Shown piece by piece: positions 5,901-31,356 of a stretch of 64,000 nucleotides of DNA. How positions within the stretch are numbered: position 1 is the stretch's first letter; the number at the start of each line of letters is the position of its first letter. Where the stretch lies: positions 268,708,001 to 268,772,000 of the forward strand of contig OZ024742.1 of NCBI GenBank assembly GCA_964016885.1, given 5' to 3'. The stretch is from Eledone cirrhosa. Lineage: Eukaryota. Under the pieces are notes generated by a model. The model was not told the DNA's origin and did not search any database. It saw nothing but the letters and a program-made list of their open reading frames with translations. The position numbers and the translations under genes are program-made.

Positions 5901-6601
5901 TGAAATTTTAGTAAGTAAGTTAATTTTATAATTTTCTTATTTTACGTCTCTCATGATATTGTTCTGCAACCCCATGCATTGAACCACAAGGTTACTAAGA
6001 CAAAACCTATGTATTTGCTAGCATTGGTATGCATCTGTGTGTATATATATGTTACTAGATATATTACTTCTTTATAATTATCTCCAAATTATTTGTCGAG
6101 CAATATTGGCCAAGACTGCTGCTATAGTAGCAGGCAGGCTGCTGTCTTCTTAACAAACCACTTTCCACTGATTGACCTCGATGTCACGCGATTGATTCTT
6201 TTTGAATTTGCCACTGACGCAGTAGGCAGTGATTTTCTCAATGGCTAGGAACTCAGTCCACGCTTTGCTATTTTCTATCCACTGAATTATTTTTGTATAA
6301 GTTCCCAGAGTCCACGCTTTGCCTGTAAACTTAGCTGAGAATAGACTTCCCTGACGACGAAAGGCTTCTCAATATTTTCTTCGGAAAGTATATTTATTCC
6401 CTTTCAGAAACTAATTAGTTGGGAGTGAAATTTTAGTAAGTAAGTTAATTTTATAATTTTCTTATTTTACGTCTGTCATATTATTGTTCTGCAACCCCAT
6501 GCATTGAACCACAAAGTTACTAAGACAAAACCTATGTATTTGCTAGCATTGGTATGCATCTGTGTGTATATATATGTTACTAGATATATTAATTCTTTAT
6601 A
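5901..6601 (+). mobile_element. Non-coding HHR mini-retroelement: 1.3 copies of a 525-nt unit, between (CA)n and (TA)n
   Basis: Direct repeat 5901-6076 / 6426-6601 (offset 525), internal HHR, CTCC/GTCGAG motif at 6082-6100, no ORF. Confidence 0.85.
6346..6425 (+). ncRNA. Type-I hammerhead ribozyme
   Basis: Helix I cttcc/gggag; core CTGACGA; helix II gaaagg/cctttc; GAAA; palindromic helix III CTAATTAG; predicted cleavage after TT at 6420. Confidence 0.8.
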
Positions 6602-6801
6602 TATATATATATATATATATATATATATATATATATATATATATATATATATATATATATATATATATATATATATATATAAATATATATATTTATATAT
6701 ATATAAATATATATATTTATATATATATAAATATATATATATAAATATATATATATATATATATATATATATATATATATATATATATATATATATATAT
6801 A
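6597..6801. repeat. (TA)n microsatellite
   Basis: Direct reading. Confidence 0.95.
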
Positions 6802-6854
6802 TTCATGCACACACAGACACAGCTAAACACACATACGTATATATTAAATGCAGT

Positions 6855-7635
6855 GAGTAAAATCGATATTGCAGCTGTGGCAGCGTCTCTCGAAAGAACA
6901 ATCCAAGCCAACCACTCTATAATATGGTATTGAAAAATCCATAAATTAAATCTTAGATTATTAAACATACGTTAAATGTATGAGAAACTGAAAACTGTGG
7001 TTAGTTACAGAATGCCACAACAACTGCTACAACACCGAAAATACCAACAGTTTAATACGAATCTCGACCTAATTGATAGATATAATCAATATATTCAATT
7101 GGTTTCTGTGAATTCGAAATCAACAATCCGAATTAAGCTATACGCAAGTTTGTACTGTATTAAGATCGAACGTTCTGTGTACCATCTGCTCGGTGCAATG
7201 TGACTGCTGTGATAGTATAGTACAAACTATCGTAGCGGGTCACGTGTTATTTCTCAAGGAATAGGGAAGAATTCCATCCGGTATTTTGGCGGGCAAATTT
7301 GAAGTGTGGACTAAGGCATCAATTCACAGTCTTTGAATTGAAGATCTCAACCAGGTTATCAAAGAAACAGAAATAATGAATCATTCAATAATCGATCAAT
7401 TAATTAATTATAAAGGTTAGGAGGAGAACAATAATAATGATATTGAGTAAAATCGAAGTTGGAGCTATGGCAACATATCTCGAAAGAACAATCCTCAGAA
7501 GCTTGCCCAAGTACTCGATAAGATGATATCGAGAAATCTAAATCTTAGAGTAATAAGCAGACGTTAAATATTTGAAAAATTGAAAACTGTGGTTAGGTAA
7601 AGAATGCCACAGCTACTACTACAATAACGAATTTA
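6855..7635 (-). mobile_element. Old non-coding partial-tandem element (~590-nt period)
   Basis: Diverged direct repeats ~6855-7035 and ~7445-7630; TCGAGTAC on - at ~7511-7518; (TA)n tracts nearby on both sides. Confidence 0.55.
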
Positions 7636-7700
7636 CAAAAAATGTATATATATATATATATATATATATATATATATATATATATATATATATATATATA

Positions 7701-28629: not shown

Positions 28630-30805
28630 ACCTAATAAATTCCTTTTCAAAAAAAGCACTTTCATTTTATATTCATCTTTTCTACATTTTCTCCGGAATA
28701 TAATTTATACTCGTTGAGCAAACCTACACGTATGCTGTTCATCTCTAACGTAACGATATATTATCACTACATTATTGATAACCTGACATTTTATATATAT
28801 ATATATATATATATATATATATATATATATATATATATATATATATATATATATATAAATATATGACAATAGCATTAAGGAAGCGTTAAGCATATTTTGG
28901 GTATATATGAAAGCATATGTGAGCATCGCTATGTCGACTTACATTCTTTATTAAATTTTAGTTATGAAGTTATACTAATAATTAATAAAAGGTATACGGA
29001 AGATATTGATCTGGTGTAAGATATAAATCTTTATATCTTGTAGAATGGGATAAGATTGATTGCTGGGTCAGGAATAGTGTAAATAAACAAGATGCAGAGG
29101 GAGCAGAATGATGAAAGGATTGGAATGCTTAACGGAAATTCATTATGTATTAATGAGAAGAGAACGTGAGTGGGAAATAAATAAATGTCGGAGGGAAAGG
29201 AAGGGGGTATTTCTGCAAACCAATGTGTAGGGGTAATTATGTATTTTGTATTAAACAGACAGTTAGAAAAACACTAAGTTCAAAAACTTAGAGTGAAGAC
29301 GGAGATGGAATAATACTCAGTTAAGAAAAAGCAGACTGTAAGATAGTTTTTCCAACACATATTACATAGTACAACTGACATTCAAATATACATTGTACTG
29401 CTATGTAAACGTTTCCTAGATCTGTTCTTGTTTGTCTTGGTACTAGTCATGTTCAAGTGTCCGTGTGTCCCACAAGCAATCTTGCAATATACCAGATATT
29501 TTTCATTTACTCTGATTTTTCTGCACGTTGCATTCTGTAAACCATCATCTTTCTGTCCTTCCAAATAAATTCATGTCTCTTATAAGTTACCTTATTTCTC
29601 CCTGTACGGGTTAATAATACATGGAGAATTGGATAAGCGAAGAAAGTAACATGTTTATTTTCATTCTTTTAGACCAATGAAAATATAGACAATTCTGTGA
29701 TCATACGGATGATGGAGTTGCTTTATGGAGACGAATTCACAATTATACTTTCTTTAATCTCAATTGTCTCCAAACGATTATTCTAACATAAATAATATAA
29801 ATATTGAAATGAGGTTTGTAATTCATGTCGCTAAAATTTCTTGGCAGAGCTATTTGACTTGAGAAAGGGTCGTAGTTAGCGCATATCGATACGGCCAGCA
29901 GATATGATGGATAGTTTCGATATAAACGACGAAAAAACATTCAAGGTGAAATACTAGGGAAGTTGGAGCAATAAGTGATGTCTGTAGCTCCCCAAAAAAC
30001 TGTTACAGCCCAGTGATGTATTTAAGTTCCATGTCTCTGGTAGTGTAGATTTGGATGAAAGATTGGAATTCCCCTATTGATGTGTGGCGCCTGAGTTAAC
30101 TGCCACAGGCGGGAGTGGGGAGAGTCACAAGACACCATCTGTCAGAATGTGTTATGGACTGGATTCCATTAGGAGGGAGGATTCGCCACACGAAATTCAC
30201 TAGGGACAACGCTTAGAAGTAGTGATTTTAACCATGTGTGTTTTTCTTCAGTTCCGAATTTGAATTTAGCGGTGTGAGCTCCTAGATCAATTAACGTTGC
30301 ACTGATGATACATAGATTGACTATTGACCTCAGCCATTTAATTCGAGAAACATATTCCTAAACAATAATAGAATAAGTATGAAATGACATGAATAATTAC
30401 TGACATTTAAAAATTATGTTTTAAATATGGTAGCTTTTGGAATTAGATATATTCTTACATCGTGTTACAAATTTTCTCCTGTTAATACTTGATACATTTA
30501 AGTATATGTCAAACTTTCTTTTTAATTTTATAATGAATGCTCGGATTTATTCCTAGAACAGGAATTACAGGTAATATGGCGCTTGTCTGAACACACTACT
30601 TTTAGACTAAATATTCTATTGTTTGTAATATGAGTGGGAAATAAATTTGTCTGCATAAATGTGTGCATGTGTGTATGTGAACACACACACACACACATAT
30701 ATATATATAGTATATATATATATAAAATATATATATATATTTTATACATATATAAAATAAAGTAAAATAAAAAGTCAAATGTTTAAAATTTAGCTTCGTT
30801 TATTA

Positions 30806-30858
30806 CTGCTATATATATTTCGGTGACAGCCATCTTTGGCTGTGACCTCTTCAGGCAG
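30806..30858 (-). ncRNA. Canonical type-I hammerhead ribozyme (antisense arm)
   Basis: Reverse complement of 31015-31067. Confidence 0.85.
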
Positions 30859-31014
30859 TCCGAATTAGTGCGGTATAGACAAGTACATATGTTGTTGAGG
30901 TGTTCCAGTTCCTCAGTGAAATAACAACCCAACCAGGAACTGGGCATATCAGAGTATTGACAAAATTATACACCTCAACAACACATGTACTTGTCTATAC
31001 CACACTAATTCGGA

Positions 31015-31067
31015 CTGCCTGAAGAGGTCACAGCCAAAGATGGCTGTCACCGAAATATATATAGCAG
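31015..31067 (+). ncRNA. Canonical type-I hammerhead ribozyme
   Basis: CTGC-CTGAAGA-GGTcACAGCCA-AAGA-TGGCTGTcACC-GAAA-TATATA-TA-GCAG; predicted cleavage after 31063. Confidence 0.88.
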
Positions 31068-31356
31068 AAATAAACGAAGCTAAATTTTAAACATTTGACT
31101 TTTTATTTTACTTTATTTTACATTACTCCGGAGTAACCAAACCAACCTGCGCACTTCGTCGAGTGCTCCAGGTGCATACTGAGTTGTTGGTATACAACCA
31201 ACATATACTCAAAATATATACATATATATATAATAATAATAATAAATGTGAATACTAAAATTTGAAGAGGGCTCGAATATGTTTCAGAAGATGCCGTTAA
31301 GTGTAAACGCAGCGATTCTTTGCTTAAAATTTAATCAGTTATTTTAATACACTCAT

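Follow-up and report, generated by a model that had tools for sequence, protein, structure and literature searches.

A 64-kb stretch of the Eledone cirrhosa genome (contig OZ024742.1, positions 268,708,001 to 268,772,000; the window, with coordinates counted from its first base) contains Penelope-like elements (PLEs), small elements and inverted insertions that abut (TA)n tracts. Their families have two recurrent ends, A and B, which are the borders of what the PLE literature calls the tail (the A-to-B stretch, here about 60–170 nt), and, in the families where both could be read, a small bulged hairpin follows each end. The order within an element is hammerhead core, hairpin A, hairpin B and open reading frame (ORF), and ends fall about 1–9 nt before either hairpin. 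This cis-acting signal is almost certainly real. The twin hairpins likely mark the points where the copying enzyme starts and explain the two unequal ends of inverted insertions.

Element ends lie just before a bulged hairpin

A first-pass annotation of the window had placed seven element ends, each projected onto a longer copy, 3–7 nt before a linear word, CTCC...GTCGAG, and all seven projections were reproduced. CTCC follows at 6082, 12595, 18765, 31126, 16114 (minus strand), 28691 and 19442, at distances of 5, 7, 6, 5, 3, 6 and 7 nt, respectively, and the additional minus-strand copy at 23355–23338 is also present. The linear word itself was replaced, as the signal is a bulged hairpin in which the fourth base covaries with its partner. 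A loose linear pattern alone is not rare, with 22 matches in the window, so that only its position is informative. The consensus consists of RCTC, a variable upper stem, a 3' bulge of 2 nt that usually starts with T, and GAGY, often followed by ACTCT. The interval from CTC to GAG is self-complementary in every aligned case from the window, with stems such as CAAA/TTTG at 6085, CC/GG at 12598, CGTAA/TTACG at 16111 (minus strand) and CAG/CTG at 23352 (minus strand), and the bulge before GAG is TC, TT or TA. Tolerated upper stems range from a single pair to over 60 nt.

The genome (3.0 Gb) has many (TA)n tracts, and ends were surveyed in 1.264 Mb of it, made up of the window and 20 adjacent and 100 spaced stretches of 10 kb, where 904 TA flanks fell into 626 clusters. 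The hairpin descriptor was composed after the window and the first 400 kb had been inspected; the leaders of elements from other hosts, described below, form the out-of-sample test. A descriptor match was found within 14 nt of 11 of the 42 recurrent TA-abutting end clusters that have a longer copy and of 11 of the 109 single clusters, while 0.67% of 200,000 random positions had one. At 25 sites chosen for having a hairpin, 281 of 292 TA-abutting ends were located 0–12 nt before the CTC, although some of these distances are shortened by alignment into TA-like bases and one single-copy row is mis-anchored. Chance as the source of the association was rejected on the random-position background and on shuffled sequences from other hosts. 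TA dinucleotides peak 6–8 nt before the hairpin (24–34 of 88, vs 10–15 at most other positions).

Each family has two ends and two hairpins

The annotation had not noticed that each family has a second end and, where it can be read, a second hairpin. Copies of the PLE designated N1 end at 19434 (equivalent to 22748, terminus B) or at 19270, with a hairpin 7 nt downstream of each, and hairpin B is just upstream of the ORF start. The same pattern was seen in the 6 kb element, the 13 kb element and family F1/F0. Both could be read in a total of six genome families, five of which are in the window, and every one of these has a separate hairpin after each end. For two families the hairpin after B was predicted beforehand. 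In the family of the truncated element N2 it was found in loci L209 and L213, the two internal copies among 30 loci, and in the 15981 family, where it was seen in internal copies elsewhere in the genome, it was present in 5 of 5 readable copies of the 6 fetched. Locus L248, an apparent counterexample, was rejected as a point mutant. No internal copy of the 18386–18848 family was found in a genome search, leaving its hairpin B unread, and there was none of N3 or of the 30753 family among 30 loci each.

The two ends are used as a pair. Far ends were fetched for 20 N1 insertions. All six insertions with an A-ended inverted arm had B as the far end, and four of five with a B-ended arm had A, the fifth having no match, so that all 10 mapped pairs were A+B. 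Three insertions with odd arms all had B as the far end. Six direct insertions ended at B (three), at A (two) or 11 nt short of A (one). In unselected DNA, 15 families gave 72 A+B, no A+A and no B+B pairs and seven with an off-site end, and targeted loci gave 78 A+B, one A+A, one B+B and five off-site. These counts exclude pairs classed as 'oo' (17 unselected and 13 targeted), which stem from a (CA)n tract in one reference.

The reach of the two arms was compared in 151 A+B pairs. In 45 it could not be resolved, in 50 it was equal (for some of these because of the limit of the reference), in 38 the A arm was longer and in 18 the B arm. In nine of the 38 the B arm lies wholly inside the tail, as at 9481–9523. 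The 106 resolvable pairs indicate that the A and B arms look independent. They also bear on the possibility that priming occurs once, at B, and that the cDNA then folds back and primes itself, with hairpin A acting as a stop. Self-priming has been proposed for PLE palindromes (PMC3846280), and the pairs of about equal reach would suit it. Fold-back, however, needs an A arm nested in the B arm, yet in 38 of the 106 pairs it is the A arm that extends further 5', and some direct insertions (L196 and L199) have A as their end. For truncated copies this explanation is largely refuted, and overall we regard it as very unlikely.

Several families show further features at their ends. In F11 (L089:4025), F22 (L084:7787) and F30 (L099:246) the A end is followed by a GTG/CAC hairpin with no GAG half; these are possibly a second signal class, and F11 keeps the A+B rule (6 pairs). 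In N3, F1/F0, F2/F5 and F3/F6 (for example L263, L265 and L284; window 7701–7790) the 5' starts of arms pile up 55–70 nt upstream of A. Except in F1/F0, the pile-up coincides with the hammerhead core's 5' edge and is some 30 nt past the site of predicted cleavage, though the F2/F5 reference stops at the pile-up, which is partly an artefact there. The ribozyme was uncut when the template was read through it, and reading often stops at the pile-up, perhaps a transcription start or splice site; in the Penelope element of D. virilis an intron is reported to end at helix I. In the 30753–31212 family (L293–L320) many B ends are extended by AATC(TC)n, the length of which varies, before the (TA)n begins; this may reflect slippage on the TCTC that would open hairpin B, as a telomerase-like repeat addition.

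The hairpin in other hosts

An alignment of 50 homologues yielded 95 loci from other hosts (77 metagenome and 18 genome-collection contigs). The descriptor was found, often twice, in 45 of 57 Hydra-type 5' leaders (at least 60 nt upstream of the ORF). The leader matches comprised 60 in sense and 3 in antisense, compared with 0.13 per kb in ORFs and 0–6 matches in 20 shuffles. By sequence alone the motif is absent from only three of the 57; examined by eye, one of these has bulge variants and two seemingly contain no true leader. Where exactly two hairpins are present (27 loci) they are spaced 55–83 nt apart. The hammerhead core starts 52–106 nt before the first hairpin, and the idea that the hairpin is part of the hammerhead was rejected on this distance. 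The 3' copies in other hosts also end just before a hairpin, within 12 nt in 7 of 8 TA-abutting ends and in 7 of 17 others, two of the latter being loose matches. Hydra-type PLEs were also seen in contigs filed as bacterial genomes (L398–L415), most likely host DNA carried into bins.

The published Hydra consensus sequences (file S7 of PMC8557442) were examined by eye. The hairpin occurs twice at the start of Hydra-1_Ajap and once each in Hydra-2_Ajap and Hydra-2_Amil, variants were seen in Hydra-1_Crog and a partial form in Hydra-1_Obim, and none was seen in Hydra-1_Amil. By host, the motif is present in coral and sea cucumber, as variants in a copepod and in part in an octopus, with one coral sequence lacking it. 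A text search of the same supplement with five words from the 3' half found no similar context among the Naiad and Chlamys matches, a search in which line breaks can hide matches.

Pairing was assessed in 87 hairpin instances from other hosts that had been picked by sequence only, ignoring pairing. The first upper pair is Watson–Crick in 74 of 87 (51 C-G and 23 T-A), while the maximum in 5000 permutations was 68, and upper pairs 2 and 3 also exceed all 5000. The bulge is TT in 52, TC in 20, TA in 14 and TG in one. In a separate covariation test, 9 C-G and 8 U-A were found among 18, and none of 500 shuffles was as good. On a tree of 31 elements, whose median protein identity is 47.5%, there were at least four double changes of the stem pair. 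Simple shared ancestry of the flanks was rejected as the source of the hairpin, as leaders could be aligned in only 24 of 1081 pairs. The hairpin's structure is conserved, it covaries and its distance from the end is fixed, as is expected of an RNA stem-loop recognised by a reverse transcriptase (RT).

The hairpins might instead serve translation, transcription or RNA stability, with the ends set by nearby TA-like sequence alone. Hairpin B is indeed 33–81 nt before the ORF, and TA is enriched at the ends. The leaders, though, are TA-rich throughout, yet ends cluster only before hairpins, and both hairpins are retained even where the unit has no RT match, making this explanation highly improbable.

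Identity of the elements

The annotation had assigned the coding element at 19426–22190 to Naiad. This label was not upheld. Naiad PLEs have the endonuclease N-terminal to the RT (PMC8557442); here the RT precedes a C-terminal GIY-YIG-type domain. Naiad was also rejected by motif, as DKA is expected and EKT or DKT was found, and by ribozyme, as canonical hammerheads should be absent and hammerhead cores were found in 62 of 77 3' untranslated regions of relatives. The RWK motif is present in N1 and N2, DKT in N2 and L036 and EKT in N1, and the N1 endonuclease has a CxCX5C linker, CxxC before the E, CxH after the N and no CCHH, which fits the Hydra clade. Insertion in (TA)n, partial tandem or inverted structures and a tail were found as well. 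In the published description of that clade (PMC8557442) the same set appears: a C-terminal endonuclease, RWK, DKT/EKT, a CxCX5C linker, a hammerhead core, a (TA)n target, partial tandems, inversions and a tail at one end. By domain order and motifs, the host element is classed as a Hydra-clade PLE. The annotation's proposal of a conserved cis-element stands in that the element fixes the ends and is common to autonomous and small elements; its tie to Naiad does not.

A regular-expression search recovered hammerhead cores in several families and in relatives, those of N1, N2 and the 6 kb and 13 kb elements being variant or unclear. With Rfam, neither the window nor six relatives gave a relevant match; Pfam returned no relevant family and PDB no significant match. 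Locus searches with proteins of the host genome had no matches, and a viral collection searched with a wider alignment had none.

The accompanying elements had been described as mini-elements; not all of them are non-autonomous. The 6 kb and 13 kb elements are the only ones to show a whole short unit (525 and 593 nt) without an RT or endonuclease match. The insertions at 26196–28791 and 7701–9523 are 5'-truncated Hydra-type coding elements. With a short tandem unit and no coding region, the 6 kb and 13 kb elements resemble retrozymes of the non-LTR class (LTR, long terminal repeat), judged on their sequence.

Proposed mechanism and alternatives

In vitro, reverse transcription by the Poseidon PLE PAc begins at two internal sites, which form the borders of the tail, and each of the two target strands is cut and extended (Frangieh et al. 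2024, PMC11167929). The reaction needs RNA located 3' of the starts and takes place on an uncut template, and the protein is predicted to form a dimer (PMC11167929). A tail and two start sites are already known, for another PLE clade. The annotation had left two roles for its motif, the start of reverse transcription or a nick in the element, and by analogy with Poseidon the start appears the better of the two. With moderate confidence, and on the same analogy, we propose that each hairpin docks the RT on the RNA and that two starts, one per cut strand, build the A+B inverted insertions.

The hairpin would act in the sense RNA, as a docking site that places the RT start about 1–9 nt upstream. 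The endonuclease would cut both strands of a (TA)n tract, each nicked (TA)n 3' end would pair with UA just 5' of a hairpin, and one RT unit would start at A and another at B, the pair probably being a dimer bound to a single RNA; this would account for the use of A and B once each. Head-to-head joining of the two cDNAs would give an inverted insertion, and a single surviving start would give a direct insertion ending at A or B. Since copying from start B leaves out hairpin B, whole copies that end at B would require a template that is circular or tandem. Such a template fits the N1 copies of more than unit length, and a tandem or circular PLE template has been proposed (PMC4209133). Short elements without an ORF would move because they have kept the hairpins. 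The hairpin would be the Hydra-clade counterpart, once per start, of the 3' RNA element that Poseidon requires. More tentatively, a little short of an even chance, this may amount to programmed twin priming, in which an RT dimer grips the two hairpins and each unit primes from one side of a double-strand cut in (TA)n, at a set distance of a few bases before its hairpin. A single geometry would then give rise to the tail, to palindromic insertions and to retrozyme mobilisation.

A number of results weigh against this proposal. The descriptor is absent from 31 of the 42 recurrent end clusters, which include B ends without a true internal copy, other repeats, hairpins over the descriptor's limit and families with other tails. 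The motif is also missing from 5 of 35 listed ends (F6-B, F11-A, F7-A, F74 and F30). Fourteen of the 72 A+B pairs come from families without a canonical hairpin after A (six from F11/F14, eight from F7/F17), so the canonical hairpin is not the sole route to the rule. Among 68 arm junctions, 25 overlap by at least 2 nt, 10 by 0–1 nt and 33 have gaps. Several short hairpins are weak (0 to -3 kcal/mol), and the 4-bp lower stem was all that RNAalifold predicted. The start site seen in the Poseidon assay is the same for both strands, and the ends of Poseidon RNA-seq reads that fall on the start sites also fit RNA cleavage (PMC11167929). Finally, a strand test gave 14 G-U vs 13 A-C, or 5 vs 2 when nested, counts that do not tell the two strands apart.

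Those read ends are one reason to consider that the RNA is cut a few bases upstream of the hairpin and under its direction, by an element protein, a host nuclease or self-cleavage, with priming at the new 3' end. The same fixed distance would result. Separate RNAs would also give A+A and B+B, however, and neither occurred among the 72 typed pairs, in vitro initiation is internal on uncut RNA (PMC11167929), and there is no Rfam ribozyme match in the window or six relatives. We consider such a cut unlikely. The strand test, for its part, is compatible with a DNA signal, in which the GIY-YIG endonuclease would recognise the hairpin in the cDNA or a donor copy and resolve an intermediate just upstream. 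Craig et al. (PMC8557442) ascribed the tail to resolution by the endonuclease, and the D. virilis endonuclease is reported to have needed the tail (PMC11167929). Where a long truncated A arm is accompanied by a B arm confined to the tail, as in the insertion at 7701–9523 (nine cases in all), no single cDNA holds both signals, and the wide range of tolerated upper stems would fit RNA better. A DNA signal is quite unlikely, and docking of the RT on the RNA remains our preferred account.

Features of the window

The elements and hairpins are listed in Table 1. The window also contains Neptune-like PLEs at 9580–11336 and 13488–15768, which have a C-terminal endonuclease with CX2-5CxxC and two ends. 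Their tail is 45 nt and AC-rich and, by eye, has a different stem with a CA bulge and no CTC/GAG; a genome search for the Neptune-type 5' junction gave no matches. A small element at L051:4269–4400 has a Neptune-like A end and, in one long copy, a canonical hairpin after B, a possible chimera or case of cross-mobilisation. The region from 35665 to 64000 has fragments of non-LTR retrotransposons nested in one another, which have (AAT)n ends and contain large internal duplications; it is unrelated to the hairpins.

Table 1. Positions of PLE-related elements, hairpins and associated features in the window (pLTR, pseudo-long terminal repeat)
Feature	Position	Strand	Details
PLE N1	19139..22748	+	Hydra clade; partial tandem of a 3314-nt unit; abuts (TA)n at terminus B
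N1 pLTR copies, 296 nt	19139-19434 and 22453-22748	+	
N1 RT frame	19426-21810	+	By translation and motif comparison with PMC8557442
N1 C-terminal GIY-YIG-type endonuclease frame	21717-22190	+	Frame differs from RT frame
N1 hammerhead-like core	19168..19218	+	Variant core, by eye and fold; not detected by Rfam
N1 hairpin A (GCTC...TC GAGC)	19277..19348	+	CTC 7 nt after terminus A (19270 = 22584)
N1 hairpin B	19441..19456	+	GCTC, C-G pair, TA bulge, GAGC; CTC 7 nt after B
6 kb small element	5892..6601	+	525-nt unit; direct partial tandem; B end
6 kb element hairpin A	5961..5984	+	Compensated lower stem GTTC/GAAC; terminus A at about 5952
6 kb element hairpin B	6081..6101	+	First motif of the first-pass annotation
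N3, 5'-truncated Hydra-type PLE	7701..9523	.	Missed by the first-pass annotation; 1.8-kb A arm on minus strand
N3 B arm	9481-9523	+	43 nt, wholly inside tail
13 kb small element	12076..13181	+	593-nt unit; A is the end of the inverted arm (projects to 13010), B that of the direct arm (13180)
13 kb element hairpin B	12594..12610	+	
13 kb element hairpin A	13022..13081	+	50-nt upper-stem insert; CTC 6-12 nt from end, by TA overlap
Inverted insertion	15981..18344	.	Plus arm ends A (18344); minus arm through hairpin A to B (15981)
15981-18344 hairpin A	16056..16115	-	
Inverted insertion	18386..18848	.	A end 18386, B end 18848; hairpin A 18764-18783
Related inverted insertion	23275..23802	.	Plus arm ends A (23802); minus arm with hairpin 23356-23337, runs to B
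N2, 5'-truncated Hydra-type PLE	26196..28791	.	Inverted arm ends A, main arm B; hairpin A 28690-28719
Inverted insertion	30753..31212	.	A end 30753, B end about 31212; hairpin A 31125-31164
Hammerhead-like core of 30753 insertion	near 31018-31060		

Relation to known systems and significance

How PLEs choose start sites and how the tail and inverted copies form are stated as open (PMC8557442, PMC11167929); that the tail is often at one end only has been published. The main text of the Hydra-clade account contains no match for hairpin or stem-loop and ascribes the tail to the endonuclease (PMC8557442). In Poseidon, unlike here, the starts are inside an AC-rich stem-loop within the ORF, and a conserved repeated motif and an A+B rule are not described in the parts of that account available to us (PMC11167929). 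Non-LTR retrozymes likewise have short hammerhead-bearing units, with proposed movement by PLEs and circular RNA intermediates, but in the portions available their link to PLEs rests on pLTR homology and co-occurrence and no recognition signal is named (PMC7229834; bioRxiv 10.64898/2026.07.22.740005); here, otherwise dissimilar elements share a defined motif. The stringent 3' stem-loops of long and short interspersed nuclear elements (LINEs and SINEs; UnaL2/UnaSINE1, ZfL2, SART1) are also bulged, are recognised by the RT, are shared with non-autonomous partners and have initiation close by (PMC5135761). They are single, at the RNA 3' end and copied, with initiation downstream of the stem-loop (PMC5135761), whereas the hairpin described here is doubled, internal and 3' of the start it marks. 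The twin hairpin and the A+B rule were not found in the papers cited here or in the literature searched, a search whose scope did not extend to Repbase and Dfam notes, subscription papers, bioRxiv supplements and figures available only as pictures.

In L1 twin priming, the two target strands prime two cDNAs and an inversion results; its second start is an opportunistic one and its arms show no overlap. In the present elements the two starts are proposed to be fixed and the arms usually overlap as palindromes.

The motif is conserved across elements with proteins only about 47% identical and is doubled exactly as the ends are, which opens it to a direct mutational test. It is a candidate for the cis-signal, so far missing, by which retrozymes borrow the PLE enzyme, a marker for true element ends and a possible handle for RNA-templated insertion tools. 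If the proposed role is true, the RT family that among retroelements is closest to telomerase would have, in a hairpin of roughly 16 nt, a portable 'start here' tag. Since PLE RTs are sister to telomerase RT, a template-positioning hairpin would also bear on the origin of RNA recognition by telomerase.

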